Positions 298 to 57,608 of a stretch of DNA of 64,000 bases are shown in pieces. Every line of letters starts with the position of its first letter. The stretch's first letter is position 1. A program made the position numbers and the translations under genes. The notes below the pieces were generated by a model, which saw only the letters and a program-made list of their open reading frames with translations, did no database searches and was not told the DNA's origin. The stretch lies in IMG/VR virus record IMGVR_UViG_3300032290_001460, positions 42,309 to 106,308 of that record; one strand, given 5' to 3'. The DNA comes from a virus. Taxonomy: Duplodnaviria > Caudoviricetes.

Positions 298-3200
298 ATG
301 AGCCAAGGAACATTTGAAGACATCCATTTTAAGGCGATGAATGGCCAATTCAATATAGATGAGGCACAAGGAATCGTTGAATGTTTCGTTGCCGCCGTAG
401 GTAACAAAGACTCCGTGGGTGACATCGTCGCATCGGGGGCATTTACAGAAAGTCTCAAGCGCCGCAAACCGCGCGTTGTATGGGGACACAACTGGAACGA
501 CCCCATCGGTAAGGTTCTAGAAATTTACGAAGTACCAGCACACGACCCGCGTCTCCCAGGAAAAATGAAGCAAGCAGGAGTGGGCGGGCTCTATGCGAAG
601 GTTCAATTCAACCTTGCAACAGAAAAAGGTCGCGAAGCATTTGCTAGCGTCGCTTTCTTTGGTGGAGACCAAGAATGGTCTATCGGCTATAAGACTCTCC
701 AAGCAAACTTTGACTCCGCCATGCAAGCAAACGTTTTGCGTGAAGTTGAACTGTACGAAGTGAGTCCAGTTCTTCATGGTGCAAATCAACTGACAGCCAC
801 AATTTCCGTCAAGAGCGACGAAGGTGAAAAGTGCCACAGTCCTGCTATGGGCGCTGGAATGCCAATGATGCCAGCAGTAATGCGTGCTTTTAAACCAGGG
901 ATTCCAGAAGGTGGCCCATCGCGCATTTCGGCAAGAATTGGCTACGACGTTTCTAGTCCTCGTGAAGATATTTTTGCAGAAGGCGAAGCACGCGAACTTA
1001 ATCGCGAAGAAATTTATAGACTTGAAGAAGAACTGATGTCACGTTCTAATAATCGTCTCAAGATTATCTCCGCAACTGAAAATATGGTCACATTCCATCG
1101 GATGCTCCCCAATGGTTCATCAACGGCTTACCGTCTCCCATACCACTACGATACGGCTGTTAGACAATACATGTTTGGCAAACCAGAGAAGATGGGACAA
1201 GGTCCTAGCCAGCCTCAACCACAAACAGTCGTTCCTATGCAGATGCCCAGTATGCCAATGTCTGTCAAGCCGAATGCCGTCAGCCCATATGCCATGGTTA
1301 ACGGTGGATACGATGGCGAAAAATCCGTTGAAGAAAGACTCCATGAAGTTATTGCTGGCTTAAAGTTGCCGCTCTTCGACGATGAAGTAGCAGAAAAATC
1401 TCAACAAGATAAAATTGAGGAAGTAGTGAATCTTCTTCAATCCTATATTGAAGAGAAGAGCGAACCCATGCGTGTCATTATGAAATGTGAACCGCATCAA
1501 GCGTTCCGTGTTAAGGAACTACTCGACCCGGTAATTGAGTATCACGGACTTCAGGCAGAAGTCAGTGAAAAGGGCGTCCATCTTTCAGGGACATTCAATG
1601 ATGAAACACTCGATGCACTATATGCGTCAGAGAAAAGTATTCAACGGATGTTCATGAAAGAGGGTGGTTGGGGAAAAGATAACGGCCCTACGGGGCCGAC
1701 CTTCGAAGTTGAAGTAAAAGCCCTCGGAGGCCGAGTTGGCCAAAGAATCGGTGGAGGCCTGAGTGCTGCACCACCAGGGATGGTTTGGGTTGACGTAACC
1801 GGAGCCATAGATGGCGATAGCGATGGAATAGTTTTTGAGGGTACGCCTATGCAGCGTCCCATTATTCCTCGTGCGATGATTCCCAAGGTGCAGGCGTCTA
1901 TACTTCAACAGACTTCCCTCCCCCGCGCTATGGAAATGGAGCGAAATAGGGTTCCTAAACCATCTGTTTCGCAAGAAGATTCCAAACCACGTTTAAATCA
2001 GGTTCCTAAAAAGAATGAATCAGATTCAGTGGTGCCTTCTAAGCCTATTCCAAAAATAGACGACACTATTCCAACACCCAGTAAGGCTCCTAAAAAAACT
2101 CAGGGGCGCAAATCAAGAAAAAGCCCTCCTACTAATCCGAATATATACGACCCGTGGGTTTATAGAAATTCAGGAACCGAGCGCATTCTTGGTAACGAAT
2201 TCAGCATCATTACGCCACTAGATGAAATTATTAACTCTGTTAGTTCTAGAAGTAAAAAATTGACTCCTAAAGAAATTATTGACAATTATGCTTATTTCCT
2301 TAATTATAGAGGCCTAGACACTCAACAAGTTTTTAAAATTTTTGAAAACCATGGTTATGTTAATACTGAAAAAGTCAACCAAACCATATCTGATGAGTTG
2401 AAATTTGCGATAGATGACATTATTGCGGCAGGCGGAAGAATTGTTTTTGCACAAAATAATCTTCTAATTAATTTGGGTGGCAATAAATTAATAATTGATT
2501 TATTAGATAAAGATAGTTATAGTAATGTTAGACAGCAGTTAAGTATGCCCTTGAAGCAATTGTATGTAAAAGAAAGAAAGACAGTAACAAATATTTCGGA
2601 CTTGTCTCCTAGGTATAATTATCTTAAGCCAGAATTGAAAAAATTAAAAGAAAAGTATGGCGATTATTTTGTTATACGCGCCCTGGATGCCGGCCATTAT
2701 TCTGCTGTTCTTTTTGACCCCATCTCTGGTGACCCCCTAAAAACTTATCAATTTAGTGGTAGTCCACGAAGTACTTCTAACCTTTTAAAAAACCTTTCTT
2801 CAGAATTTACAAATGCAGCCGTAGTTAGAAGATTTGAATCAGCAAAAATATGGAAGCCAGCGCGCGAAGTCATTGATAAAGTACCGTTGAGACCAGCAAA
2901 TGAAGGGGAAACCCCAAAATTCGGTCCGCTGAGTGGTACTTCTAAGTTGGTTCAGATTTTTTCTGAACTAGGTTTTTCGCCAGACAGTAAAGAATATCCT
3001 AATGCTCTCGTTGAATTAGAAATACATGATATTGGTGACGGAAAATTTGGTGTATATGGTGTAATCGTAGATGAAGATGGCATAGAACACCTCGTGAGCC
3101 AGGAGCAGGATGGTCTTGCAGATTCATTAGATTTTCTTCGTGCACTAGGTTCAGAATATTCTCAGTCGCAATTATCAGAAATGAGAAGTGCTCATCTAAG

Positions 3201-12200: not shown

Positions 12201-13563
12201 AAAAATAGATGATGATATTTTATCTTTATTTAAAGATGCTGAAAATCCACCGACTAAGAATGAACTGACGAAATTGACAGGACTATCACAGGATGCAGTA
12301 TATATCCGATTAATTAAATTGCGTGAAAATACTGGTCGAGAATTAAGCCTCGCAACAGATGACGAAAGAATAAATAATACAATTCTGTCTTTCTTTAAAG
12401 ATGGCGGAAAATCGCCAGATATGAAGAAAATAATGGAAGTAACAGGCCTGCCATATAAAGCGATACATAAAAGACTAGTAAGGTTGCGTAAGAAAACTGG
12501 ACGTGAACTAAAACTGGAAGGGCAGCGAACGAGCGTAATAGGAGATATTGGTGAGACTATTTTATCGTTTTTCGAGGATGGTAAAATTCCGCCAACTCGC
12601 GAACAACTAGCAGATGCAACGGGTTTGCAATTAGATTCGATAAGTCAAAAGTTATCTAAATTACGAGAAATAACTGGGCGGGATTTGCCAGTTCGTATAA
12701 ATCGAACAATTGAGCCGAAAAGTGCAGAAATAAACAATACAATTTTATCTTTATTTAAAGATGATGAAAAAAATCCTACTAGTGCTGAAATTATTGAAGC
12801 GACAGGGTTGACGCGTTCAATGTTGGGGAAAAGATTGGAATATTTGCGTAAAAGAACTGGGCGTGAATTAAAACTAAGAAAAAAAGAAAATAAAGAAAAA
12901 AAACCTAAATTGGTTGTTGAACGCAAACCTAAATTGGTTGTTGAACGCAAACCTGGAGATACGTCCAAAGAAGAAAAAAAGACTCCAGACGAATTGGTCT
13001 TATCTTTATTCAAAGATAGTAAAACGCCCCCAACCATGCAGGAAATAGTAAGAGAATTAGGAGTGTCGTATCCGGCTGCGAAAGAACGGCTTAAGAGATT
13101 ACGCCAAAAAACCGGCATGGCATTGTCAATTACTCCCGTGCCGGCGATGCCAATATTAAATGATGCCATAAATCAACAACTTTTATCTTTGTTTGAAAAT
13201 AATAAAAATATAACTACTGAACAAATTGCGAAAGCAACAGGGTTGTCTGTTTCTGCAATAAAGGGCAGATTGGTTCGTTTACGAAAAGAAACAGGAAAAG
13301 AGTTATCTATTAGTAGAGACCTGCCACCAAGCCTTAGAGATGATATTAGTAAGACTATTTTATCATTTTTTGAAGAAGGTAAAAGTGCACCAACCCGACA
13401 GCAACTAGTGGACGCAACGGGATTCTCCGCAGATGGAGTAACTAGACGCTTACAAAAATTGCGTAAAGGAACTGGGATGGACCTACAACTCGCCGGAACC
13501 AAAACCCCCGAAGGTCGAACCACAATGCCGAAGTTAGAAATTATTCCACCAAAAGAAAAATAA
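298..13563 (+). CDS. Giant 4421-aa protein: N-terminal HK97-family prohead protease fused to a multi-domain cargo region (KTSC-like domain, HDxxGH domain, duplicated WLYPDG domain, C-terminal HTH array)
   Basis: Residues ~20-170 carry caudoviral prohead protease motifs (GNKDSVGDIVASGAF, WGHNWNDPIGK, EWSIGY, LREVELYEVSPVLHGAN). GGAG precedes the ATG. The 13.3-kb ORF is uninterrupted. Confidence 0.9.
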   Translation: MSQGTFEDIHFKAMNGQFNIDEAQGIVECFVAAVGNKDSVGDIVASGAFTESLKRRKPRVVWGHNWNDPIGKVLEIYEVPAHDPRLPGKMKQAGVGGLYAKVQFNLATEKGREAFASVAFFGGDQEWSIGYKTLQANFDSAMQANVLREVELYEVSPVLHGANQLTATISVKSDEGEKCHSPAMGAGMPMMPAVMRAFKPGIPEGGPSRISARIGYDVSSPREDIFAEGEARELNREEIYRLEEELMSRSNNRLKIISATENMVTFHRMLPNGSSTAYRLPYHYDTAVRQYMFGKPEKMGQGPSQPQPQTVVPMQMPSMPMSVKPNAVSPYAMVNGGYDGEKSVEERLHEVIAGLKLPLFDDEVAEKSQQDKIEEVVNLLQSYIEEKSEPMRVIMKCEPHQAFRVKELLDPVIEYHGLQAEVSEKGVHLSGTFNDETLDALYASEKSIQRMFMKEGGWGKDNGPTGPTFEVEVKALGGRVGQRIGGGLSAAPPGMVWVDVTGAIDGDSDGIVFEGTPMQRPIIPRAMIPKVQASILQQTSLPRAMEMERNRVPKPSVSQEDSKPRLNQVPKKNESDSVVPSKPIPKIDDTIPTPSKAPKKTQGRKSRKSPPTNPNIYDPWVYRNSGTERILGNEFSIITPLDEIINSVSSRSKKLTPKEIIDNYAYFLNYRGLDTQQVFKIFENHGYVNTEKVNQTISDELKFAIDDIIAAGGRIVFAQNNLLINLGGNKLIIDLLDKDSYSNVRQQLSMPLKQLYVKERKTVTNISDLSPRYNYLKPELKKLKEKYGDYFVIRALDAGHYSAVLFDPISGDPLKTYQFSGSPRSTSNLLKNLSSEFTNAAVVRRFESAKIWKPAREVIDKVPLRPANEGETPKFGPLSGTSKLVQIFSELGFSPDSKEYPNALVELEIHDIGDGKFGVYGVIVDEDGIEHLVSQEQDGLADSLDFLRALGSEYSQSQLSEMRSAHLRRMGVVGQLGDTSGLSQEVEEMRAARDERTYNQWFVDDGSRSQRTPTLIYNTAAKSIRDIFDDEKTWDPFFEDLKDVLGHSQKQSQRLLDLYDDPNATEEAITNLEESIRELDEQIAAVIDYAKFLNGENRRARLKRLKNPLINKMIDERTGGEYSDFTDAEIERLRNNLTFSENDISDIFGVEGSDKARNFVESMQDVLDDAEWYDGILSSPIEDENNPDYLENPSQELYDDAIRSLSMEIDFIKDARKRNHQQRLAISDGSNLSDGTSRSQRSFINGRGVGETRQIFPNEDKQGTSKKIKYARYDGRKEELLVEYSSGETITYGGVTDRMVSAVEKSLDDIDGGIDGIKAEARYSIKPDGQIEGRAVSVATLVQRDIERLEQYDVITAKDKLWMQLAANAILSNFEEPPEYELLSLSDQLANVANKLAREYEENSAALNLLEIKSSIDDRVGNGLGGTRGTRMYRPLKDETTLDLTNDEIGELRDEIQSILNKHGDRITFAPFAEFDKALKDAQDSNKNNVTIKNNLHSALTVAYDELYWMASHSQAEKRWLNPIGETLLNIAAASGRFTSPRLSANRGDFKGVPFNNGAPSRMTPEARTTLIDWANGDGLGFYVLKDIRDSYRLRNGNLTSRQWNTLANMYRRFGPGGSDRKDSSSRSKKDTEIYYAIVPSDVPDQIDDEEEEKPKPKKPVGKPASELLPGDFDSMTAKEKIDVMFQIGRATKDNPDGIAPEDWDRLIYPLDKELDVEEAVQNQAEFMAAQEAAAMRGEVLTEEQFYENKSRQAELHDRRTIQRALSEYDAGRPELLQKLGLRRENFIIKADREYKAPTKPKPLGKWATDFSMKIRSQIEKAIANGLAGEEHLDPWLSMEELINDNDGLLDEETIQNIIPVLEEYVSAYDGAEFGHRSEGNSYKQANDMIEELENTLSILLDPTIIEDDSDDSGDDKKDSDAASEVPDTTQGVSLSIEGDSGSKSRRSSSMASTTGRQDAVDSGSNQINSEDSSRSIREVIKLEDLLEIDKREQSEDMGEPFVELSKALENWLNNHISDMGGWDKSHETRLRRQVEDLILNLRGLRDKWQSMGTAKRSGILRRMKMVDGYEPHPLTKMSLEDIISKSELRIHDDGTLSFKLPPNPILRQLIPGNRNYQDVELPTAETVSEIFDNLTNDWRRLDELFNSIYEVFDEDEDGRRGARLRKYPVGGEKLPHHSLYLGKYAEPPTEAPSPEGALQYHYNDISARILQYYIIPELAKIKRNENPKIGEISNDNDHFIHGYLQLFTDPHAWQEMSAVLSENFRVSPGTILHDLLGHYALGNTFDRHGEYGNILSTIQLARDKKFWQKLREIPELSDLSEEDRDLYMRGLLVDVAARWFNRVGTDSPDDERRLKKKIAFYDGPIDELLDKIDPPNEQSSSSSRSTRRIPLIDVDDKQLSELGKESIDGIAIREEFIRPSSRDELEQFVSRRKPIGSDLPVDLRTGEPRRMSHETDREWNARRNNFYRNNPWFDRPPIDASEDSPKIDRNNEFGDGELIKPSYKFNFKWNQYQDYTDEELIDKLKSDKKPSNTLVHELSLRGYEVRKKREYDLGDFSGREGYDYTYFFAKPMDEITQEHLDRRKSKYNPVDETQKIDEPSTSIIPTLEEDVVDEQDFVEPEEFPLKPKQPRVPRPRPGTNTVNIGGNNSGIINLGNNVTIDTGDINVSNQGSKITIINGNKVTVDANTDVLSMPLKKVDEELASIQKDLAELKERRVKGSISDADYAQRRVDLANRKVALKLKKHSVPDGDATKGTPNVSYIGNSSRSTRNIDYYRREFNLSPEDLEFIKYTNAPDLFLREEFGIDDTAIADIRSYVPPLDVIKEIDSLTDDDVRFLESYDGIVSQITEEFNSFVTRTMAERLQAIQYIGNSNLPELEKQENIKEIDDAFNELLKVNSEIHFDRLNDAVLYTAPLNYRGFGWRMTPERISSLGLPEGYENKLKFNQATRIWEMMNGLGFDWDEIEDFTGLTFDELKPLFPHVRIIGMIREQEKNSLNNPPEDGSSSRSMRPERRQIVPISGNYTRQGNLHRKLDGLLTPGSSDYRKDDLSDEEISAIKKFSYSQTVRYDYDYDPLSLMTYEELDTLSNLISADRAKSLNVEFDKDFRKLIEQEFDIRDIRNDPFKYRGGGNERKLKREFVSAEEFLGPGMDGYAINRGMHGGWLYPDGRIYPLQQDSHGTEFVYRDAFEDGLIRIIFSQKSQRRDSSMDLEIADARPTPEQYETLQKLMDAGEPSEIRFAAGKKSEEYDASYTSRPTYQYENVLRGKDTKKLKESLTQEVSWKQEESTSDDSSSSLSKKGTYRPLLGHTFEGYGQAEKKLSYSLEKLSKQNGAAKKLNDEEKNVIEKYFQIKNADAEPLRLLSDDEIKTLLNLISEEKLTVRNADLSAELLGVYRKDAEYLLIRELDIRSNPQKYKFGGNERKLKNRFLSAKQLVDPETMGVWETPSLRAAWLYPDGRLYHVTDGHTKEHTYNDAFGDGLIRLNVSLAKEKDDRGPATAPFLAIHAADIAPTAEQMKILEELIDVAKPKEIFYQAGVSSKIHNPNEVIPDDSDFGIYVEGERSGTIKSGDLKKRLKQELDAVGWAKLPDNDSSSRSKKDTDSDLSDEEFKIIDDFVNADIDNIEPVEEEPTDGRTRRARAKKREEFLRDAVTQIIKLSENAEKFKRGPDAGEVSGGLLEKVAQMFAAGDYSIIDKYEKIVKEKGAGTSPGEFFANSYYKYESLGAEQRLERQKGGNKQKGKFVENIEALEAKITDGESSFVLPELSIEDDLSVGEIDEDVAKKIAFYDKFEEYLPLHAEIMGYIGSGMTASKISKQTGVPIKIVNAMKSNMAFIAEQLGDIENWPLDSLDEDYRDIAKLLPGDDMSLNLDIAKRLQKAKTFFETIEFDRDTGEISFEQTSIAQRQIKLEKNNDIILSFFEDGKPAPTIEEIAKALGVTFDSARGLIVRLRKTTGRKLKTGKKEENSKKIDDDILSLFKDAENPPTKNELTKLTGLSQDAVYIRLIKLRENTGRELSLATDDERINNTILSFFKDGGKSPDMKKIMEVTGLPYKAIHKRLVRLRKKTGRELKLEGQRTSVIGDIGETILSFFEDGKIPPTREQLADATGLQLDSISQKLSKLREITGRDLPVRINRTIEPKSAEINNTILSLFKDDEKNPTSAEIIEATGLTRSMLGKRLEYLRKRTGRELKLRKKENKEKKPKLVVERKPKLVVERKPGDTSKEEKKTPDELVLSLFKDSKTPPTMQEIVRELGVSYPAAKERLKRLRQKTGMALSITPVPAMPILNDAINQQLLSLFENNKNITTEQIAKATGLSVSAIKGRLVRLRKETGKELSISRDLPPSLRDDISKTILSFFEEGKSAPTRQQLVDATGFSADGVTRRLQKLRKGTGMDLQLAGTKTPEGRTTMPKLEIIPPKEK
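12043..13488 (+). repeat. Eight tandem ~55-aa helix-turn-helix repeats at the C-terminus of the giant protease fusion
   Basis: The consensus ILS[FL]F[EK]Dx3-4PTxx[EQ][IL]xxxTG[LV]x7RLxxLRxxTGx[ED]L is readable eight times. Confidence 0.85.
12901..12948 (+). repeat. Exact 24-bp tandem duplication (KPKLVVER x2)
   Basis: aaacctaaattggttgttgaacgc at 12901-12924 and 12925-12948. Confidence 0.95.
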
Positions 13564-26283: not shown

Positions 26284-26941
26284 GTTTGAAATGGACGAAT
26301 TTGAAGTGAAGGCTCCACAAGACGCCATCTTGGATTTACCACAAGAAAAATTTACAGGCGATGTACTCAAGGGCCGTGGACCCCGGCGAGGCAATCTGGA
26401 ACGTCTCCTTCGCTACTGGCGTCCCATTATGCGCAAACCAGGCGGCTTTAGGCGATGCAAAGTCATCCTGGCAGACCATCCAGAACTGTATCCATTAAAT
26501 AATATTTGCGCATGGCTACACCATGAAACTACAGGCTTATGGCCCAATGAGGGGTGTCATCACCCTGGAATGAAGAATTGTAAACGTAAACTGAAGAAAG
26601 TTTTCAATGGTTCTAAGTGGAATGACAAGGAATGGGATTCCATGATGAATCGTCGGTTCAAGCCACAAGGTAAGTCGTTGCCATTTGATGATGAGATGTT
26701 CTTTTCTGATTCTTGGCATACAAAGACGGCCATTATTGTTATCCCTGGCGAAAATCATGTCGTGACACTCGATGACATGGCTCATGCAATGAGAGTTCTG
26801 AAAGATTTTTGTGAGATGGAATCAGATTTTGTTGAATTTTTGCGAAACAACGACAACTGGGACATGTTAGGAGAAGACGGTATGGGGAACATGATGAAGT
26901 CACTCGTACCGCTGGACGAGGATTGCGGTTGCGATAAATGA
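26264..26941 (+). CDS. Hypothetical head-associated protein with a Cys/His/Trp domain
   Basis: GNLERLLRYW...PGGFRRC...ICAWLHHETTGLWPNEG resembles small domains of phage head-module proteins. The start may be the ATG at 26276. Confidence 0.65.
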   Translation: MEHKMDEFEMDEFEVKAPQDAILDLPQEKFTGDVLKGRGPRRGNLERLLRYWRPIMRKPGGFRRCKVILADHPELYPLNNICAWLHHETTGLWPNEGCHHPGMKNCKRKLKKVFNGSKWNDKEWDSMMNRRFKPQGKSLPFDDEMFFSDSWHTKTAIIVIPGENHVVTLDDMAHAMRVLKDFCEMESDFVEFLRNNDNWDMLGEDGMGNMMKSLVPLDEDCGCDK

Positions 26942-28959
26942 TTATTTACGATATTCAGAAACCATCCAAATGTTGCGAGCAATTAATGATGCACGTTAAG
27001 CGTCATGTTGTTTCTGACCGTCAACCATCCCAGAGTAGTGTCATCCTAAGTAAAAGTGCATTGACTCCAGAGATAACAACGTATAAAGCGATGAGTCACG
27101 CCTATGGGGTTAGACATCTATACAACGTCAAGCGTGTTGGTTTATTAGGCTCAAATACCGCTATTGGTCAGATGGCACAATCTATTGGTTCATACGCCCT
27201 ACCAGGTGATATTTCCCCCATAAGAAGCCCTATTCGTTCTGCTGCTTTTTCGGCACTAACTCCGGGTATGCCAGGGATTCCTGGAGGTCGACCACGCAAG
27301 AGTAATCGTGTAGCACGATGCCCTGAGGGTTACCAATATGGTGGACGTTTTGCTAATAATGAACTTTCAAACTGTGGCGCACAATTATTCGACCTACCTA
27401 GTCCACTAGGTTTGGCTATTGGTGCTTTGCGTCGTATAGCACGCGCTGCGAATGCCCTAACTCCACCCACGCTCGTTGGCTCCCCTGTCACTCCAGGGCA
27501 ATACACTGACATCCTGGATTCACGTAGGCCACAAATACCGCGAGTTAGCAATCTTAATGCTCCAGCAAAGTTGCAAGCAATTACGAAACTTGTAGCAGAT
27601 ATGGGTGCTCCGGACATTAATGCGACACGCCTCGTTCGACGCGACGGCTTTGTTCTCCAACCTGTTGTCTCTGCTCGCGTTTTGCGTTCAATCCCAGATA
27701 ACAGAGACATGGAAGATGCCGCCTATCTAATGACTGCAGGGGACCTTCCATCATTGGGTGGAGAAGAATTGGGCCTGCTCTCAAATACTGGTGTTACTCG
27801 TTTGACATACGTTCTTCCCGGTGGCTCTACGTTGAGCCTAGAGAAGGTGCGTCCACTAACTATTGGTGAGCGTCGCAAACTTGGTCGCACAGTCAATGCT
27901 GCTAGCACTATAGATAATACCGAGAACCCTATTGCGCGTCTACAAAAAGTAGTTTCTGAAACTGGAGATGGTATTAAATATACCGAAAGTTTCAAAAATG
28001 TAGATAACCCCCACCAGGTTGTGCCTGGACGTAATGGTAAAAATACTGAGAAGTGGGTTAAGGAACTATTTGGCAAGCCATCTAAGGTATCTAAGGCTCC
28101 AGAACGTCCTTCCGCTTCAAATGCTGCAATAGGAACAAAAATTACTTCCGTTGACGAAGCAGTTTCACATATCAACTCTGGTGGTTCACTGGCCGATATT
28201 CCGCCTTCGTTGTTGGCTGAAGCGTTGAAGCAGGTCGATTTGTTTAAGAAGATACAGGCCCGCAATGGTTTGAATAGGGTTTACGGGCCAGATAATCATT
28301 CTTATTGGATGAAGGATTCTGCAGGTAATTTCGAGGCAATCAATGCTGTATTCCAGTCTGACATGCAACAACATCTTGGCCTTGAATCACCAGACGTATT
28401 CCCTGTGGGTACTGGCGATAAGCGTAGTTATCTATATCAGACATCAAATGTTGTTTATCCCGGAGTTTCTCCAGATAAGGAGAAAACTGTTAATGATGTC
28501 AACGAAAAAGATATGGCTAAACTTTTTGTGTCGGACTTTGTTTCCGCTAATACGAATAGGTCTCCAGCGTCCATTGACGTAGTGTCATCCGCCGAGGAGT
28601 ATAAGCCCGTGTCGAACGTATTCGAAACTGAGTTAACACCTCTTGCGGAAATTAAAGTACGTGAGCAAACCAAGAAAGTCATTGACGGATTCAAGGCTGC
28701 TCAGGGTGATGGCATATATGGCGATTACTACAAGAAATTGAAGGCATCTCAGCGCCGTTTATTTTTGCGTGAAATACAGAAAATGCTTGAACGCGCACGT
28801 TTATTCAACTTCACCAACTATAGGAGCCGTTTGACTTCAGGTGGAGAGTTGACTGCTGGAGAAAAAGCACATATTGATATTGTTCAAAAAATACAAAAAA
28901 ATAGATTAGAGATTTTGTCATCTACTATTGAAAACCTAAACGAAATCCTTGGTGGATAA
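26938..28959 (+). CDS. 673-aa protein with an RCPxG...F...SNC motif and a degenerate HipA/PI3K-like kinase fold at the C-terminus
   Basis: ATGA overlap with the previous gene. Motifs: RCPEGYQYGGRFANNELSNC and YWMK...HLGLESPDV...SDFVSANTNRSPASI. Confidence 0.65.
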   Translation: MIIYDIQKPSKCCEQLMMHVKRHVVSDRQPSQSSVILSKSALTPEITTYKAMSHAYGVRHLYNVKRVGLLGSNTAIGQMAQSIGSYALPGDISPIRSPIRSAAFSALTPGMPGIPGGRPRKSNRVARCPEGYQYGGRFANNELSNCGAQLFDLPSPLGLAIGALRRIARAANALTPPTLVGSPVTPGQYTDILDSRRPQIPRVSNLNAPAKLQAITKLVADMGAPDINATRLVRRDGFVLQPVVSARVLRSIPDNRDMEDAAYLMTAGDLPSLGGEELGLLSNTGVTRLTYVLPGGSTLSLEKVRPLTIGERRKLGRTVNAASTIDNTENPIARLQKVVSETGDGIKYTESFKNVDNPHQVVPGRNGKNTEKWVKELFGKPSKVSKAPERPSASNAAIGTKITSVDEAVSHINSGGSLADIPPSLLAEALKQVDLFKKIQARNGLNRVYGPDNHSYWMKDSAGNFEAINAVFQSDMQQHLGLESPDVFPVGTGDKRSYLYQTSNVVYPGVSPDKEKTVNDVNEKDMAKLFVSDFVSANTNRSPASIDVVSSAEEYKPVSNVFETELTPLAEIKVREQTKKVIDGFKAAQGDGIYGDYYKKLKASQRRLFLREIQKMLERARLFNFTNYRSRLTSGGELTAGEKAHIDIVQKIQKNRLEILSSTIENLNEILGG

Positions 28960-49873: not shown

Positions 49874-50224
49874 ATGAATGAGAAAGTCACCCCAGCACAA
49901 AGACTGATGGCAGGAGAGGTCAACCTCGTTATCTCTCCATCAAACGAGTCATTTAAAACACTCAACCCACAGGAAAGAAAATTTGCTGAAGCACTAATTT
50001 CCATCACTCAAGAATATGGAAAATTTGATGAAGACGGCGAAGGCGTATGGGCAGGATACTCCCCGCCATCAAAAAATGATGTCAAAGACATTGGTGTCAA
50101 ATGCGCAAACTGCGTCATGTGGGAAGGCGGCACAACATGCAAAATTATTGCCCTCCCAGTAGAAGCAGAAGCAAAATGCCGTTTGGCTGTAATCCCTGAT
50201 GGGGTTGTGCAAAAAAGCAAATGA
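49874..50224 (+). CDS. Small Cys-rich protein with HiPIP-like cysteine spacing
   Basis: GAGGT RBS. CANCVMWEGGTTCKII...AKCRL provides four Cys. Confidence 0.65.
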   Translation: MNEKVTPAQRLMAGEVNLVISPSNESFKTLNPQERKFAEALISITQEYGKFDEDGEGVWAGYSPPSKNDVKDIGVKCANCVMWEGGTTCKIIALPVEAEAKCRLAVIPDGVVQKSK

Positions 50225-51282
50225 CAGAAAACCTTCCCAATAGATTGCTACCGCGCAAACCAAAACTCAAACGAACAGGCATGATTGTTCCTGCTCGTGA
50301 CGTTACCTATGGAGAAACGCCCGATTGGATACAAAAGGCAACGAAGGATTTTTTGGATAATATCCCCAAAAAGAAATCTCTTTCTAACTTAAATTACACA
50401 AAACCAGAACTCAGAAATAATTTGAAAAAAAGAATTATGAACGGCTCTGATGGCGGTAGGCCCGGTCAATGGTCTGCCAGAAAAGCGCAACTACTCGCTC
50501 TTGCCTATCGCAAGGCGGGAGGCGGATATAGGGGTAAGCCTTCAAAGAGTCAACGTTCTCTAAGTAAGTGGACTAAAGAGAGATGGACTACTATTGATGG
50601 GAAACCCGCTTATCGTAAGGGCAAAATGAGCAGATATCTTCCCGCTAAAGCGTGGACTAGATTAACTGCCGCTCAACGTAAGGCTACCGTTGCTAAGAAA
50701 CTAGAGGGCAGTAAGCGTGGCGAGCAGTTTGTTGCGAATACTCGCAGGGCTGCTTCTGCTTCTGCTTCCGCTCGCAAGACTGGTCAGCCTTCACATTACG
50801 TTGTTAAGCAGTTGGATATCAAGAAAGATAAATCACCCAGTAACTCATCTGAAGGTAATATCGATGTTTCTTCTCGTAAGACTATTAAATTATCGAATGG
50901 TGAAGTAGAGTTATTTAAACCTATGGCTTTCCGGAATGCTGGAAAAGTTATCGTTGTCCCCACAATTACTGAGGGCGGCAAACTACTGACTGAGAGTGGA
51001 GCAATTAACAAATACTTCGAAACTGGAATGCACCTAGGCATATTTGACGATATGTCAGAAGCAAAAGTTCGTATTGAACAACTAGAAAAAGAACGTTTCA
51101 AAGACACTCCAAAAGAAAATACGGCAAAGAAAAAAGAAGATAAATACGATAGGCGTAAACACCGCCGGTCGCTGGCCGTCAACCCAGCAACAATAAAGCC
51201 TGTCATCGACCCCAAAGCAAATGAAAACCAGCCTAAAAATGGAGTAATGAAACGCTCAGATTTTCTTGCTCAATTTGAATAA
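50221..51282 (+). CDS. Basic protein with a DUF5872-like N-terminal domain and a C-terminal domain shared with 53301-57608
   Basis: NYTKPELR...GGRPGQWSARKAQLLA.AY.KAGGGY...SLSKWTKERW...RYLPAKAW. C-terminal motif VPTI...YFETGMHLGIF. Confidence 0.7.
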   Translation: MTENLPNRLLPRKPKLKRTGMIVPARDVTYGETPDWIQKATKDFLDNIPKKKSLSNLNYTKPELRNNLKKRIMNGSDGGRPGQWSARKAQLLALAYRKAGGGYRGKPSKSQRSLSKWTKERWTTIDGKPAYRKGKMSRYLPAKAWTRLTAAQRKATVAKKLEGSKRGEQFVANTRRAASASASARKTGQPSHYVVKQLDIKKDKSPSNSSEGNIDVSSRKTIKLSNGEVELFKPMAFRNAGKVIVVPTITEGGKLLTESGAINKYFETGMHLGIFDDMSEAKVRIEQLEKERFKDTPKENTAKKKEDKYDRRKHRRSLAVNPATIKPVIDPKANENQPKNGVMKRSDFLAQFE

Positions 51283-51691: not shown

Positions 51692-53011
51692 ATGTCAGAA
51701 GACACTTCACGTCTGAACGAACTGCAAAGCGCACTCCGTTCAAAGATGTCCGATAATAAGGCCATCGCAGACTCATTCAAGATTCAAGACGGCACCGTCG
51801 TTGTATCAACCGACCAAAAGACAGCGTTTGACAAGAACATGCGCGACATCAAGGAAATCAAGAGTCTCATCGAGGGCCTTGAATCATTCCGCGAAGTCGA
51901 TGCATGGAGTAATCAGGCTTCAGGTCAGTCAGTTGGCGCATCGGCTGCTGCTAGCGCCGCTGGTGCTTCGGCACAGCGCACCCAATTCAAGTCAATCGGT
52001 GATGAGTTCGTCGGTTCGGCTGAATTCAAGTCACTTAACGGTGGCCGCAACGGCGCAAACATGCCTACCCCATTCACGACCAATGCAGTTCTCACCGGCT
52101 CATACAGCCAGAAGGACCTGTACTCAGGATTGCCGACCGGAAACCCCGGTACCTTCGGCAACATCCAGCGTGACCCGATTGTTATTCCTCCAATGCGCAC
52201 CAAGCGTGTTCGTGACTTGTTCCCCGTTCGTACAACGAACGCTCAAGTTATCGAATACTTCCGCATGACGGGATTCACCAACAACGCTGCAGCAGTTGCA
52301 CAGCGCAACAATGACAACACCAACTTCGGCATCAAGCCGCAGTCGTCCTTCACCTTTGTGGGCGAGCAGGCTCCGGTCCGCACCATCGCTCACTGGGAAG
52401 CCGCACACCGTAACGTTCTCGCTGACGAACCGCAATTGCGTTCAATCATCGACAACGAATTGATGTACGGTCTCCGTTTGCAAGAAGATGCACAGATTCT
52501 TGCTGGTGACGGTACTGGCGAAAACCTTCAGGGTGTTCTCACCACAACGGGTATCCAGACATACGACTGGTCGGACGGCGCACATTTGCCTGTCGCAGAT
52601 ACTAAGGTCGACGCAATTCGTCGTGCCGCAACCCTGTCGTTCTTGGCTTACTACGAGCCAACCGGCGTGGTTCTCCACCCGAATGACTGGGAAGACATGG
52701 AACTCGCTAAGGACGACAATGGCCAGTACCTCGTTGCTGTGTCGGTCGCCCTTGGTGGAGAGCCCAAGTTGTGGCGTATCCCTGTCGTCGAAACCCCAGC
52801 AATGACAGAAGGCACCGCTCTTGTCGGTGCATTCGGTACCGGAGCACAGTTGTACGACCGTGAGCAGGCCAGCATTAGAATCAGCGAACAGCACAGCGAC
52901 TTCTTCGTCCGTAACGCCATTGTGATTCTTGCCGAACAGCGTTTGGCTCTTGCTGTCAAGCGTCCGGAAGCATTCGTCAAGGTCAACTTCGACGCAGCAC
53001 CAACAGCCTGA
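51692..53011 (+). CDS. Major capsid protein, HK97 fold, with an N-terminal coiled-coil delta-like domain
   Basis: Motifs VRDLFP, VRTIAHW, LRSIIDNELMYGLRLQEDAQILAGDGTGENLQG, VVLHPNDW...KDDNGQYL and FVRNAIVILAEQRLALAVKRPEAFV. Strong codon bias. Confidence 0.97.
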   Translation: MSEDTSRLNELQSALRSKMSDNKAIADSFKIQDGTVVVSTDQKTAFDKNMRDIKEIKSLIEGLESFREVDAWSNQASGQSVGASAAASAAGASAQRTQFKSIGDEFVGSAEFKSLNGGRNGANMPTPFTTNAVLTGSYSQKDLYSGLPTGNPGTFGNIQRDPIVIPPMRTKRVRDLFPVRTTNAQVIEYFRMTGFTNNAAAVAQRNNDNTNFGIKPQSSFTFVGEQAPVRTIAHWEAAHRNVLADEPQLRSIIDNELMYGLRLQEDAQILAGDGTGENLQGVLTTTGIQTYDWSDGAHLPVADTKVDAIRRAATLSFLAYYEPTGVVLHPNDWEDMELAKDDNGQYLVAVSVALGGEPKLWRIPVVETPAMTEGTALVGAFGTGAQLYDREQASIRISEQHSDFFVRNAIVILAEQRLALAVKRPEAFVKVNFDAAPTA

Positions 53012-53044
53012 TAACTAACTCGTAAGAGGAAGAAGTAGTGGCTC

Positions 53045-53095
53045 GGCCCCTCGGAAGACGGTTCTCATGCCGTCAACTGAGGGGCCTTGTCATTT
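53045..53095 (+). terminator. Probable intrinsic terminator after the capsid gene
   Basis: A ggcccctc/gaggggcc stem with an inner gacgg/ccgtc stem, followed by ttgtcattt. Confidence 0.65.
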
Positions 53096-53127
53096 AGTAA
53101 ACATTTAGTATTTTAAGATTTGAGACT

Positions 53128-53304
53128 ATGGGACGCCATACATTTAAAGACGATGATAATGATTTCGATTGGGAAGAAATCGAAAAAGTTACAAAAAATT
53201 ACAAGGGCTCTGCAGACGATTTGGAAGACATACTCATTGATGAGGCTTACCAAAAACGTAAGAAGAAAAAGAAGCCAGGGCGCTTCACCGACGAAGAAGG
53301 TTGA
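53128..53304 (+). CDS. Small hypothetical protein (58 aa), not in the ORF track
   Basis: MGRHTFKDDDNDFDWEEIEKVTKNYKGSADDLEDILIDEAYQKRKKKKKPGRFTDEEG. The stop overlaps the next start. Confidence 0.6.
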   Translation: MGRHTFKDDDNDFDWEEIEKVTKNYKGSADDLEDILIDEAYQKRKKKKKPGRFTDEEG

Positions 53305-56300
53305 CCGTGAAGTTTGATTCAATAGATAAAATTCAGGTTGTTGAAACTGAAGGTAAGGCTGCCCCAGTTTGTCCACCAGCAACACAGGATATTGGATTAA
53401 ATATTAAAAATCGCCAGAACGCGATTGACACCGCTGGTTATGGCCCCCTAAATCCTGCCGAACCGAACGATGAGTTCTGGGAGAAAAAAGGTGACCGCTG
53501 GAGTGTCTCCATTGAAGAGGCTAAAAAGCAGGTTTGTGGCAACTGTATTCTTTTTGTTCGCTCTCCACGCATTTTAGACTGCATTGAGGGCGCCCTGGGT
53601 AATGAAGCCGGCAATACGGCAATGGATATTGTTGAAGCAGGCGAAATCGGGTACTGTGAAGCGTTCGACTTCAAGTGTCACTCTGCGCGTACTTGTGATG
53701 CATGGGTTGTTGGTGGTCCGACTGTCACCGATGGAAAAGCCAATGATGAGGACGAGGAAGACAAAGAAGAGACTAAAGACGTTTTCGGGTCTATGCCGAG
53801 TGGTAATCCCGGAACATTTGGTTCAGTGGAACGAGATGGAACCGTAGGTAAGCCGCCGTTTCGTGATGACAATGAAAAGAAAGCATATTCTTTCATCGAC
53901 TCCATGGATGATGATGAATTGGAAAAGACGTTCCCTATTGATGACGAGATAGCCGTTGAAGAAGTTAAGGGGATGTTCGGGGTTTCGACAGGTTTCATAT
54001 TAGGAACCCTGAATGAGCGACGCAAGAACAAGAAAAAGAAAAAGTTAGAGGAATTAGAAGGAAAAGAAAATTCCTTGTCTTTGCTAGAAATGAAGGAAGC
54101 AGAATTCAATAGTTATATTGACTCATTGGATGATGATGAATTTGACATCATGTTCCCTGACGATTCTGACGAAACAATTAATGATGCAAAATGGCTATTT
54201 GATACCGCTGGTGGTTTTATACGGAGGGGCATTACCGGTCGTCGCAAGAAAATAAGAAAGACAGATGAGCAGTTCTCTATCAAGGGTGCAGGTAATCGTG
54301 AATCAAGCGACTCCAAAGGTGGTCTATGTTGGGACGGTTACAAGCAAGTCGGTATGAAGAAGGGCAAGAACGGTCGAATGGTTCCTAATTGTGTTCCAAT
54401 TTCGCCAGAAGAGAAATCGGCAAGCAAGCCCGTTCTTCGTGACCCCAAGGGTGGTCTTACTGCTGCTGGCCGCAAGTATTTTAAGAATAAAGAAGGCGCC
54501 GACCTTAAGCCCGGAGTCAAGGGACCCGCTGATACTCCTGACAAAATGCGCCGTAAGGGTTCTTTTCTTGTGCGCTTCTTCACCACTCTTTCTGGCCCCC
54601 TAAAAGATGAGAATGGGCGGCCTACGCGTCTTGCTCTTTCTGCTGCGGCGTGGGGAGAGCCTGTCCCACAGACTGCAGTTGCCGCCAAGAAACTTGCTGC
54701 CAAGGGTCAACGACTTCTTGAGAGATATCGTAAATTGCAGGATAAGCAAAAGAAAAAAGAATACGATAATTCTATTATTGAAGAAAAATCTCTTACAGTT
54801 GATGAAATTGATTCAAAAAATTTCATTACTCCTAGTTTCAGAAATGCGGGATATAGAGAAGCAATCAATGGGGCTAAACCGATTGTAGAAAAAACTGCAA
54901 AAATATATGTCAAAATTGATAATTCTGATGATGTTTCTAAAGTTATTAATACAAAGGTCGATGGGGCAGGCGAGCCCGAAAACAAAAAAAAAATAGTTGA
55001 GTTAGAGTTTCTTTCCGTTAAGGAACTTGGTGCAACGATTTCTTCTAACGGGAAAAAACCTTCGACAACACAAAAGCCGGCCAAGTCCAACACTCGCACC
55101 ATTGGTGGAGGTTCATCATCTAGCGGCGGCTCGTCTGGTGAAAGGTATGACCCGAAAGCAGTAGACCGCGATGGCGATGGAAGCGTTCAAGAAGGAACTG
55201 ATTTCATGCGACCCGCACAGTCCCCTAAAAAAGATGAGGGGAACAAAACGAAGCCAAGAAGAACTGCCGACAACTTGGAACGAGCAATGGAATCTGTCAA
55301 CTGGGAAGACTTCAGTAAATTAGTTGCATCAGAAGCAAGAAAATTAAAACCAGGTCAAGCGACCAATTGGAATGCCGGCATTCTGCCGAATGGCATCATT
55401 GATACTGACGGTAGATTTATTCCAGCGCCAATTGAACCTGGGAACATTGATTTATCAAACAGAGAGCCGATACGTCTAGATGATGGTTCCATGGCTACTG
55501 TACGTAGTATTTCCGGAGTTGTTGATGGTAAAGAAGTATTAATACCTACAATAGGACCTAATGGTGAAAACTGGAATCCCGATACTGAAGAAGGAAGAAA
55601 TGCTGCTTGGAATGAGTATTTTGAAACAGGAAAAAATTTAGGAACGTTTAATAACGCCGAAGAGGCTAATGTTTTTGCGGAATGGCTGCATCGACAAGAA
55701 GAGTCAAGAGTTAAAGATAAGCCAACCCCGACGCCTACCACTCCTACTCCCAAGCCTCCTGTGCCCACACCTCCAACCCCACCCGCACCTACAGTGCCGC
55801 CGACGCCTACTCCTAAGCCCACTACTCCCACGCCTGGTCCAACGCCACCGACAGCACCGCCTGTCCCTGGTCCAACGCCACCGACAGCACCGCCTGTTAA
55901 GCCTGCACCAAAACCTCCCGTAGGACCCAAAGAACGTGGAGAAGGCGCTACGCCCAAGCCGCAGGCTCCTTCAGATACGCCTACTGAAGGACGGGGTGGG
56001 CCCTCAAAGCCTGACAAGCCGAGCGTTCTACTTCCACCCGTTTCTAGTCCTCCCCCAACAACGCAGCCGGGAATTCAGTTTAACCCACCCACAACAACCA
56101 CTCCACCCACAACAACCACTCCACCAGCGACTACAACGCCGCCTACGACTACACCAGCAAAACCAGTTACACCCGTTGGTCCAAAGGAAAGAGGAGAAGG
56201 TGACATTCCTCCACGTCTTGGGCCTGCACCAGTTGGCCCCACAACAACTGCCCCACCAAAAGTAGGACCAGCCACCCCTCCAATTAATCCACCCACAACA

Positions 56301-57608
56301 ACAAAACCTCCCACTACAACTAAGCCACCGACTACAACTCCACCGACTACAACTAAGCCACCGACTACTCCAATTCCTAAAGAGAGCACGGTAGATGTTG
56401 ACGCTATTAACGAGTATGTACGTTCGCGTATTGATGCCGCCAAAGAATCTGCAGACAAAGCAAAAGAAAAAAATGATGAGCGGAGACGAGAACAGGGTGC
56501 CAGGCGAGCAGGCATGTACGAAGAAGCAAAACGCCGACGTAGTGGCAGTGATGGCGAATCTACTAATTCAAACAACGATAATGAGACAGATATCGGCGAG
56601 CCATTATTCCCTCCAGAAACTACTCCAACTCCACCAACAGAAGGAGCGGGGGATACTGATAGCCAATTCGTACGTGGCTCTTATGACGTTGATAGTGATT
56701 TCTTGAATCAGAACTCATGGAATTTATGGAAGAACCCTGAATTTGATTCTTTAAAGGAAGGGCAATCAATGCTCCTTACTGATATCCCTGATGCGCGGGG
56801 AGTAGGAGATATGGAATTTGCTATTGCAGTAAAAATTAACGACACAATAGTCTTGCAAGAATTAGATAAGAAGTCATATTCAAAAATTGAGAATGACAGC
56901 AAAGATAAAATTAGTGACGCGACATTTAAATCATCAGAAACATACAAGATAATGGCAGAGGCAGCAAGTGGTTTTGATATGATAAAGGCCACTTTCCCAG
57001 ATGTTGAAAAAGTATTGGAACAGATAACAATTTCTAACGACCCTGCATTGGATGATGCGGAGCGAAATGATGGTTTTATAACTTGGGGTTCAGCGTTAAG
57101 TCCAGGAAATACCTATACTTTGTATCCGGCTGGAGTAAGAGGTACTTCTGCCTCGGGAGCGTTAGAGAGAACTGTTGCTCACGAGATTGCCCACCTCTAT
57201 CAGAATAACAGTATCTATTCATTTGACCGAGATTTGTCAATGAGTTGGGAAGAAGTCCAATCACGAGATGCTGAGATATCACGAAAATTTGCTGATGAAA
57301 ATGGATTCAGAATATACGATATTCCACAAGGGGAATATCATGCCCCCGATATAGGAAGTATTGGAATAACTGATTACGGCGATACGATGATTGAAGAAGA
57401 CTGGGCTGAATCGTTCATGTATTACTGTATTTCAAAACAGGAAGGCGGAATAGGGACTGATGATAACGGCAATGTAGTTACATTCGAAGACCTATATCCC
57501 AATAGAGCCAAGATGATTAATGAGTGGATGGATACATGGAAAAAAGATAATGAAAGTCCAGGTGTAGATGCAATTACAGATGCACTCACAGATGCATTTA
57601 CATTATAA
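53301..57608 (+). CDS. 1435-aa multi-domain head-associated protein: Cys-rich N-terminal domain, CWDGY motif, DUF6321-like domain, DxDxDG tag, Pro/Thr linker, C-terminal lethal-factor-like zincin
   Basis: Motifs CPPATQD...CGNC...GYCEAFDFKCHSARTCDAW, CWDGYKQVGMK...VPNCVP and DPKGGLTAAGRKYF...RRKGSFLVRF. YDPKAVDRDGDGSVQEGTDFMRP at 55146. HEIAH at 57180 followed by ITDYGDTMIEEDWAES. Confidence 0.82.
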   Translation: MTVKFDSIDKIQVVETEGKAAPVCPPATQDIGLNIKNRQNAIDTAGYGPLNPAEPNDEFWEKKGDRWSVSIEEAKKQVCGNCILFVRSPRILDCIEGALGNEAGNTAMDIVEAGEIGYCEAFDFKCHSARTCDAWVVGGPTVTDGKANDEDEEDKEETKDVFGSMPSGNPGTFGSVERDGTVGKPPFRDDNEKKAYSFIDSMDDDELEKTFPIDDEIAVEEVKGMFGVSTGFILGTLNERRKNKKKKKLEELEGKENSLSLLEMKEAEFNSYIDSLDDDEFDIMFPDDSDETINDAKWLFDTAGGFIRRGITGRRKKIRKTDEQFSIKGAGNRESSDSKGGLCWDGYKQVGMKKGKNGRMVPNCVPISPEEKSASKPVLRDPKGGLTAAGRKYFKNKEGADLKPGVKGPADTPDKMRRKGSFLVRFFTTLSGPLKDENGRPTRLALSAAAWGEPVPQTAVAAKKLAAKGQRLLERYRKLQDKQKKKEYDNSIIEEKSLTVDEIDSKNFITPSFRNAGYREAINGAKPIVEKTAKIYVKIDNSDDVSKVINTKVDGAGEPENKKKIVELEFLSVKELGATISSNGKKPSTTQKPAKSNTRTIGGGSSSSGGSSGERYDPKAVDRDGDGSVQEGTDFMRPAQSPKKDEGNKTKPRRTADNLERAMESVNWEDFSKLVASEARKLKPGQATNWNAGILPNGIIDTDGRFIPAPIEPGNIDLSNREPIRLDDGSMATVRSISGVVDGKEVLIPTIGPNGENWNPDTEEGRNAAWNEYFETGKNLGTFNNAEEANVFAEWLHRQEESRVKDKPTPTPTTPTPKPPVPTPPTPPAPTVPPTPTPKPTTPTPGPTPPTAPPVPGPTPPTAPPVKPAPKPPVGPKERGEGATPKPQAPSDTPTEGRGGPSKPDKPSVLLPPVSSPPPTTQPGIQFNPPTTTTPPTTTTPPATTTPPTTTPAKPVTPVGPKERGEGDIPPRLGPAPVGPTTTAPPKVGPATPPINPPTTTKPPTTTKPPTTTPPTTTKPPTTPIPKESTVDVDAINEYVRSRIDAAKESADKAKEKNDERRREQGARRAGMYEEAKRRRSGSDGESTNSNNDNETDIGEPLFPPETTPTPPTEGAGDTDSQFVRGSYDVDSDFLNQNSWNLWKNPEFDSLKEGQSMLLTDIPDARGVGDMEFAIAVKINDTIVLQELDKKSYSKIENDSKDKISDATFKSSETYKIMAEAASGFDMIKATFPDVEKVLEQITISNDPALDDAERNDGFITWGSALSPGNTYTLYPAGVRGTSASGALERTVAHEIAHLYQNNSIYSFDRDLSMSWEEVQSRDAEISRKFADENGFRIYDIPQGEYHAPDIGSIGITDYGDTMIEEDWAESFMYYCISKQEGGIGTDDNGNVVTFEDLYPNRAKMINEWMDTWKKDNESPGVDAITDALTDAFTL
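55720..56378 (+). repeat. Pro/Thr-rich low-complexity coding repeats
   Basis: PTPTTPTPKPP, PGPTPPTAPPV x2, PPTTTT and PPTTTK units, PVGPKERGEG x2. Confidence 0.85.

Follow-up and report, generated by a model that had tools for sequence, protein, structure and literature searches.

An uncultured tailed phage (Duplodnaviria; Caudoviricetes) carries two copies of a segment that lies at the predicted start of the capsid N-arm, one in the major capsid protein and the other in a large protein encoded just downstream of the capsid gene. The DNA studied here, referred to as the window, is a stretch of 64,000 nucleotides (positions 42,309 to 106,308 of the IMG/VR record IMGVR_UViG_3300032290_001460), and all coordinates below are those of the window. 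The phage is from a lake, and its group consists of uncultured freshwater phages that are related to phages of actinobacteria. Residues 141-169 of its capsid protein resemble, at the protein level only, residues 159-188 of p1435, the 1435-amino-acid product of the open reading frame (ORF) 53301-57608. Because BLASTP, shuffling, a profile match, the small number of shared codons and the saturated synonymous sites all point the same way, we conclude that the similarity is real, is maintained at the protein level and does not stem from a recent duplication. The segment in p1435, here called the cassette, may be a head-targeting and processing tag that mimics the junction between the delta (scaffold) domain and the N-arm of the capsid protein; judged from the sequences, we give this reading an even chance.

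The choice of cargo for loading into phage heads is known for few model phages (T4 and P1). If the reading is correct, a tag imitating the capsid maturation junction would be a simple and evolvable solution to loading. It would also explain how very large effector polyproteins are loaded and cut in uncultured phages, and would offer a portable peptide for putting foreign proteins into HK97-type shells.

The capsid segment and its copy in p1435

In BLASTP, the capsid protein and p1435 gave one significant local match (capsid 143-169, p1435 161-188; 14 of 28 positions identical; E 6e-6). The Smith-Waterman score was 90, against 43.8 +/- 5.7 in shuffled sequences, and was reached in 0 of 1000 shuffles (p 1.7e-5 by a Gumbel fit). 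A first-pass annotation of the window had read the two segments at 52112-52174 and 53775-53837 and had stated that their codons differ. Both translations were reproduced, and the difference in codons was confirmed: at the 21 aligned positions, the residue is the same at 12 and the codon at only 3, where independent drawing of codons would give 3.9. The nonsynonymous divergence (dN) between the two segments was 0.35 and the synonymous divergence (dS) was saturated. A recent duplication of the capsid segment was rejected, since the codon identity is no higher than chance.

We also built a profile from capsid N-arm segments alone (85 distinct ones, with no cargo sequences, cargo meaning here the non-capsid carriers), and it matched p1435 with 33 bits (independent E-value 3.6e-8). 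Across the 106-kb genome and 85 loci, p1435 was the only non-capsid ORF that this profile found. When five long relatives were searched over their whole records, only the capsid copy turned up, and the positive control, the genome of the window, gave both copies. The genome holds exactly two copies of the segment, in the capsid protein and in p1435; the profile search and the whole-record searches with their positive control rejected any further weak copy, both for the rest of the genome and for the flanks of relatives.

The copy in p1435 retains 9 of the 12 capsid-invariant positions in its first 21 residues, together with two conservative changes. In the nearest clade (P0003 and P0004), column identity is 0.94 in the peptide and 0.50 in the preceding linker. 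These values support the maintenance of the second copy by selection.

The capsid ORF (51692-53011) encodes a major capsid protein of the HK97 type. It matched PF05065 (E 1e-45) and also phrog_10, and a phmmer comparison with the HK97 gp5 structures (1ohg and 3qpr) gave E ~1e-55. Capsid residues K215, N408 and E415 align with the HK97 cross-link triad, which we take to be K169, N356 and E363. Because the three aligned residues are invariant in 44 relatives, this chain-mail triad is kept, and covalent cross-linking of the capsid is probable.

The robust alignment with gp5 begins at capsid residue 158/159, which corresponds to gp5 119/120. Its ungapped extension brings the HK97 cut K103↓S104 to capsid 142↓143, one residue off Lys141↓Asp142 (arrows mark known, predicted or candidate cuts). 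Neither K141 nor D142 varies among 44 aligned capsids or among the 85 distinct N-arm segments, and Lys-Asp is also retained in Gordonia phage capsids at 47% identity. Equivalence of Lys141↓Asp142 with the HK97 cut is likely, but not proven, for a reason given below. In HK97 Prohead I, residues 105-130 are flexible or disordered and hold the cut site (PMC10275583). The AlphaFold2 model of the window capsid had helices at residues 2-27, 40-75 and 102-113, with a mean predicted local distance difference test (pLDDT) value of only 46.7, too poor to use. In the model of p1435 (pLDDT 53.7), the cassette was predicted as coil with pLDDT about 30, too poor to read beyond "disordered".

Carriers of the peptide and the borders of its module

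We compared 80 IMG/VR contigs with capsids 71-85% identical to the window capsid. In these contigs, homologues of the Cys-rich domain and of the DUF6321 domain of p1435 usually come after the capsid gene. The peptide is present in the nearest clade, consisting of P0003 and the 13-member P0004 cluster; a variant, P0158, is closer to the capsid at the C-terminal end of the peptide. In L010 and L011, which have the two most similar architectures, the first repeat comes after the Cys-rich domain with a gap of ~32 residues in place of the peptide. P0004 begins with a Cys-rich domain of the L010 type and not of the window type (53301-53774), and from E-E-T-K onward it is near-identical to the window protein. 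By these sequences, P0004 is a product of module exchange with its breakpoint in the acidic linker just before E-E-T-K.

A profile search of 1.84 billion representative proteins recovered capsids and, in addition, non-capsid carriers. Two carriers, P0182 and P0183, start with M-x-x-N-R-K↓D and the peptide; then come a run rich in Lys and Arg, in most cases E-E-K↓S, the repeat known from p1435, and DUF6321. Such standalone proteins, encoded by other phages of the group, are ~390-440 amino acids long, and their peptide begins at residue 7, six residues after the start. The P0182 copy preserves the P-I-V-I-P-P-M-R part almost exactly. With a DNA pattern for the N-R-K-D start, seven distinct standalone variants were found in IMG/VR; the distance to the capsid gene is 15 kb for one of them, which belongs to a complete genome of 150.9 kb, and 8.5 kb for another. 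Residues 159 to ~510 of p1435 are collinear with one such standalone protein (E-values of 6e-7 for the peptide, 7e-26 for the repeat and 3e-52 for DUF6321). Because of this collinearity with proteins that begin with the peptide, we conclude that the peptide is the N-terminal head of a mobile module (peptide, charged or basic stretch, helical repeat and DUF6321), not a random insertion. On the same grounds, p1435 is a fusion of this module behind the Cys-rich domain, which left the putative N-terminal tag internal, directly after the junction Lys.

Other carriers differ from this module. P0179 is a homologue of the 673-amino-acid product of window ORF 26938-28959, and its N-terminal extension carries the peptide at residues 102-124. 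P0180 and P0186, both small, have the peptide close to the C-terminus, with an Arg-rich tail behind it. The peptide thus occurs on at least four different protein architectures, always from the same Lys, and these include at least two carriers unrelated to the DUF6321 module. In all carriers, the capsid-like stretch has precisely this Lys as its first residue (E-T-K↓D, N-R-K↓D, D-R-K↓D, S-Q-K↓D, D-G-K↓D and E-G-K↓D). Pfam and PHROGs gave nothing for the 673-amino-acid protein, P0179, P0180 or P0186, and a related-locus search with P0179 found no relative. Back-translated DNA patterns of the cargo copy gave nothing in IMG/VR and only stop-containing chance matches in the JGI metagenomes. A tblastn search of GenBank phages with the cargo peptide gave no match, and the Gordonia phage ChisanaKitsune has no second copy.

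Three side observations concern these carriers. The 673-amino-acid protein is a conserved head-module protein whose Atlas match to ADP-ribosyltransferase clusters (0.82) is a lead only. In the related phage G007 (L177/L181), there are two DUF6321 proteins, of which the one directly 3' of the capsid gene has no copy and the other, 8.5 kb away, begins with the copy. In one IMG/VR contig, L092 (3243-10761), the gene of a standalone carrier has a C5 cytosine methyltransferase gene on one side and two N6/N4 methyltransferase genes on the other, and does not lie among head genes.

Proteins of the Cys-rich/DUF6321 family have E-E/T/G-K and then Ser or Ala at their module borders (53301-54800 in the window; also L003, L010, L011, L063, L069, L078, P0006, P0007 and P0161). 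This border motif sits before and after the Cys-rich domain and before and after DUF6321, and standalone Cys-rich proteins terminate where the fused ones bear it. In the window clade, the Cys-rich domain gives way to the rest at E-E-T-K↓D, and 35 residues farther on stands E-K-K↓A, the next motif that resembles a junction. Lys at the P1 position of the putative cuts, as in HK97, is supported. Nearly all DUF6321 domains also have K-[SAG]-[AG] 6-10 residues ahead of an L-R-D-P core. The border motif may amount to a cleavage code with Lys at P1, different from the S-R-S-x-[RK] linkers in the giant proteins nearby; in a motif recount, p1435 contained 0 such linkers and six neighbouring proteins contained 1-9 each.

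Possible roles of the cassette

The window encodes a prohead protease domain. Residues 22-174 of the 4421-amino-acid product of ORF 298-13563 matched PF04586 (E 2.7e-10; 41.1 bits against a curated cutoff of 21). BLASTP with HK97 gp4 gave E 3e-10, and a His and a Ser of the domain align with gp4 H65 and S114, which we take to be the catalytic residues. By these matches, this S78 domain is an HK97-type prohead protease, placed as the N-terminal part of a giant protein in the same head module, and it is a candidate reader of the Lys↓Asp site.

As a head-targeting and processing tag, the cassette, made up of a Lys↓Asp bond and about 20-28 further residues, would interact in the assembling prohead with the partners that also engage the flexible junction of delta domain and N-arm in the capsid protein. 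These partners would be the S78 protease, cutting Lys159↓Asp160, and/or the site under the capsomer that receives the N-arm. The module would be recruited and processed along with the capsid, and the product would be a fragment with a capsid-like N-terminus or, if the next junction were also cut, a free peptide of ~35 residues. Because the Lys is conserved and the peptide is N-terminal in the standalone forms and portable between unrelated proteins, it is likely to be more than a bare cut site; because the conserved stretch after the putative cut is long, a role for the retained peptide is suggested. The first-pass annotation had proposed that the protein mimics the N-arm in order to dock on the capsid lattice or to be recognized by the protease, and as a whole this interpretation is partly supported.

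One of the closest comparisons is with HK97 gp5 and its protease gp4 (MEROPS S78, K103↓S104). The window capsid is close to gp5, the protease is gp4-like, Lys is at P1 in both, and the copied stretch corresponds to the flexible N-arm start that holds the cut site. In HK97, however, the sequence occurs only in the capsid protein, and a whole-genome search found no second copy. In the window phage, by contrast, the protease heads a 4421-amino-acid protein and non-capsid proteins carry copies of the junction.

Other systems share some properties with the cassette, but, HK97 aside, none of the T4/P1 targeting sequences, the 80alpha motif and P1 DarA appears to be a copy of a capsid N-arm. The targeting sequences of T4 IPIII and Alt and of P1 DarB (residues 1-30) are likewise short, portable N-terminal peptides on unrelated head proteins, with a candidate protease site after them (PMC9024508). 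They have no sequence relation to the peptide studied here, and the known tags are unlike their capsid protein. Moreover, the conserved part of the window type lies after the putative cut and would be retained, not removed. As to the N-terminal position of such sequences, the peptide is at residue 7 in the standalone homologues and internal (159-188) in p1435. In phage 80alpha, the capsid protein and a non-capsid head protein, the scaffold, have one conserved sequence in common at a shared cut, the Prp cleavage motif also present in L27, and in the scaffold this sequence is required for assembly even without cleavage (PMC5744158). There, the protease is a host cysteine protease, the shared part precedes the cut, and the substrates are scaffold and not cargo. 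[quoted passage not shown] These cases are precedents for joint processing of capsid and cargo and speak for the tag reading, as does the T4 gp61.1 match described below.

A further comparison is with the polyvalent proteins of phages. The 2740-amino-acid neighbour of p1435 has MPTase-PolyVal, ArdC-N, pentapeptide and zeta-toxin domains (PF18818, PF08401 and PF06414 among the matches), which are hallmarks of polyvalent proteins; for these, Iyer et al. 2017 (PMC5512222) predict both packaging and processing. p1435 resembles this class in its size, its several modules and the place of its gene in the head region beside those of proteins with MPTase-PolyVal, ArdC-N and zeta-toxin domains, and in the expected processing into parts. 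Its own domains (Cys-rich, DUF6321, a shared domain of ~90 amino acids and HExxH) include none of the hallmark polyvalent Pfam families. For polyvalent proteins, autoprocessing by resident metallopeptidases was proposed, and a capsid-like tag was not described (PMC5512222).

Several observations weigh against the cassette being a tag of the proposed kind. The peptide was found in none of the p1435 homologues of the 80 IMG/VR relatives, and was also absent from P0005-7 and P0161; because most relatives do without it, it is dispensable for the family. The first-pass annotation had named absence from the homologues as the result that would speak against its interpretation, and the outcome is divided: most homologues lack the segment, while the nearest clade has it and distant standalone homologues have it at the N-terminus. 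Relatives that lack the peptide also have junction lysines, so it is unnecessary for merely making a cut site. p1435 bears another candidate tag, of the DxDxDG type, at residues ~616-641. As for the capsid site itself, a gapped MAFFT alignment makes the K-D...F-G stretch an insertion and shifts the HK97 site upstream, and for this reason the equivalence of Lys141↓Asp142 is not proven. In addition, K100↓S-I-G and K113↓S-L-N in the capsid delta domain resemble K↓S-L-G of HK97 more, and may be extra capsid cuts or the true mature end. The earlier placement of the segment at the delta-domain/N-arm junction is supported by the ungapped HK97 extension and the invariant Lys141-Asp142, with Asp142 as the predicted mature start and these two sites as candidate alternatives.

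The copies also follow their own capsids incompletely, as judged from five capsid/cargo pairs only, with the pairings of P0003 and P0004 inferred. G-N-P is common to cargo and capsid in the window clade only, and S-P-M-R is common to both in G006. The cargo copy of the window clade has G-N-P-S-N against G-N-P-G-T in two inferred capsid partners, and the capsid N-arms of G006 and G007 carry an insertion of 10-14 residues that is not in their cargo copies. Because these copies do not follow the insertion of their own capsid, a strict structural replica is disfavoured.

Some of these points suit a pure docking mimic, in which the peptide would fill the capsid N-arm groove, with or without a cut and with no specific role of the protease. 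It could do so, for example, at empty sites around the portal vertex or under the capsomers, and would anchor the module to the inner shell. Keeping 9 of 12 invariant positions goes far beyond usual protease recognition, the junction lysines are already present without the peptide, and P-I-V-I-P-P-M-R is nearly exact in P0182. There are also precedents: once the scaffold of HK97 is removed, N-arm residues ~119-129 settle in its former place (PMC10275583), and P1 DarA binds the inner capsid surface (PMC12810830). However, each capsid subunit has its own N-arm, which leaves few free sites, the G006 and G007 copies ignore the insertion in their capsids, and the strict Lys before Asp, kept even behind a six-residue leader, would have no role. 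We regard pure docking as unlikely.

A broader possibility comes from T4 gp61.1, a hypothetical protein of 54 amino acids that copies residues 57-93 of gp23 (E 6e-9). Like the cassette, it is a protein-level copy of the capsid maturation site and the first ~30 mature residues. A basic tail comes after it. T4 differs in capsid family and protease (gp23/gp21), and the sequences are unrelated, so that gp61.1 is an analogue and not a homologue. The cassette fits this class, namely a selectively kept copy of the maturation site and mature start in a non-capsid protein. Unrelated tailed-phage lineages (this HK97-type group and T4 with its gene 61.1) might make free or cargo-borne copies of the mature capsid start as a general device. 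Here the copy would be excised as Asp160-Lys194 and would bind wherever the N-arm binds (e.g. unfilled portal-vertex sites), positioning cargo for first exit or tuning shell maturation. We offer this as speculation that probably does not hold; if it did, such self-mimicry would define a new class of head-assembly ligand. No paper on the function of gp61.1 was found, and the idea is testable in a model system because T4 has this analogous, unstudied small gene.

It is rather improbable that the two copies share a ligand outside capsid assembly, such as packaged DNA or a chaperone, or that a free copy is a decoy against capsid-sensing host defences. A Lys/Arg-rich run follows the peptide in most carriers, like R-T-K-R-V-R in the capsid, and the carrier gene among the DNA methyltransferase genes is far from head genes. 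The tail of the window copy, on the other hand, is acidic and not basic, and the exact register with the cut site would be left unexplained. That the cassette is a functionless relic, copied from the capsid gene into a tolerant linker by illegitimate recombination and drifting since, is very unlikely already: the two genes adjoin, the linker is predicted to be disordered and most homologues manage without the peptide, but capsid-invariant residues are kept while synonymous sites are saturated, identity is 0.94 beside a linker at 0.50, and the peptide recurs on at least four architectures from the same Lys.

Features of the window and of p1435

The features discussed above and the remaining modules of p1435 are listed in Table 1.

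Table 1. Coordinates of features in the window
Feature	Position	Strand	Basis
S78 (HK97 gp4-like) prohead protease domain, residues 22-174 of the 4421-amino-acid ORF 298-13563	361..819	+	PF04586
Major capsid protein gene, 439 amino acids, HK97 type, N-terminal delta (scaffold) domain	51692..53011	+	PF05065, phrog_10, HK97 gp5 homology
Capsid Lys141↓Asp142 (predicted maturation cut) and first ~28 N-arm residues; original of the copy	52112..52198	+	HK97 alignment, conservation
p1435, multi-module head-region protein, TTG start	53301..57608	+	Same start position in homologues P0003 and P0004
Cys-rich domain, residues 24-146	53370..53738	+	Named "HiPIP" in the annotation of phage DSL-LC01; encoded by its own small gene in many relatives
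Acidic linker of variable sequence, with E-E-T at its end, before Lys159; module-swap breakpoint in P0004	53739..53774	+	Column identity 0.50 against 0.94 in the next segment
N-arm-like cassette, Lys159↓Asp160 to Lys194, then junction-like E-K-K↓A	53775..53882	+	BLASTP, profile match, conservation
Two helical "DD..FP / KW.FD" repeats, residues 190-330	53868..54290	+	
DUF6321 domain, residues 380-451	54438..54653	+	PF19846, E 3e-28
K-E-L-G, then DxDxDG-type tag common to other giant head-module proteins	55020..55223	+	Motif count
HExxH zincin-like motif region of the C-terminal domain	57180..57416	+	Related to two domains of a 1825-amino-acid protein; no Pfam match, weak

Pfam and PHROGs gave nothing for the Cys-rich domain of p1435. 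The domain of ~90 residues (G-N-I-D start, about 40% identity) is common to p1435 (55440-55720) and to a 353-amino-acid protein (50221-51282) encoded before the capsid gene, and is also found in some relatives. Between the middle of p1435 and its HExxH domain, a Pro/Thr-rich, low-complexity linker of about 250 residues (55700-56450) contains two repeats of the motif P-V-G-P-K-E-R-G-E-G. Upstream of the capsid gene, ORF 49874-50224 encodes a 116-amino-acid protein that has no family match; its four Cys residues are arranged as C-x-x-C ... C ... C, and it is possibly a second small Cys-rich domain like that at the head of p1435.

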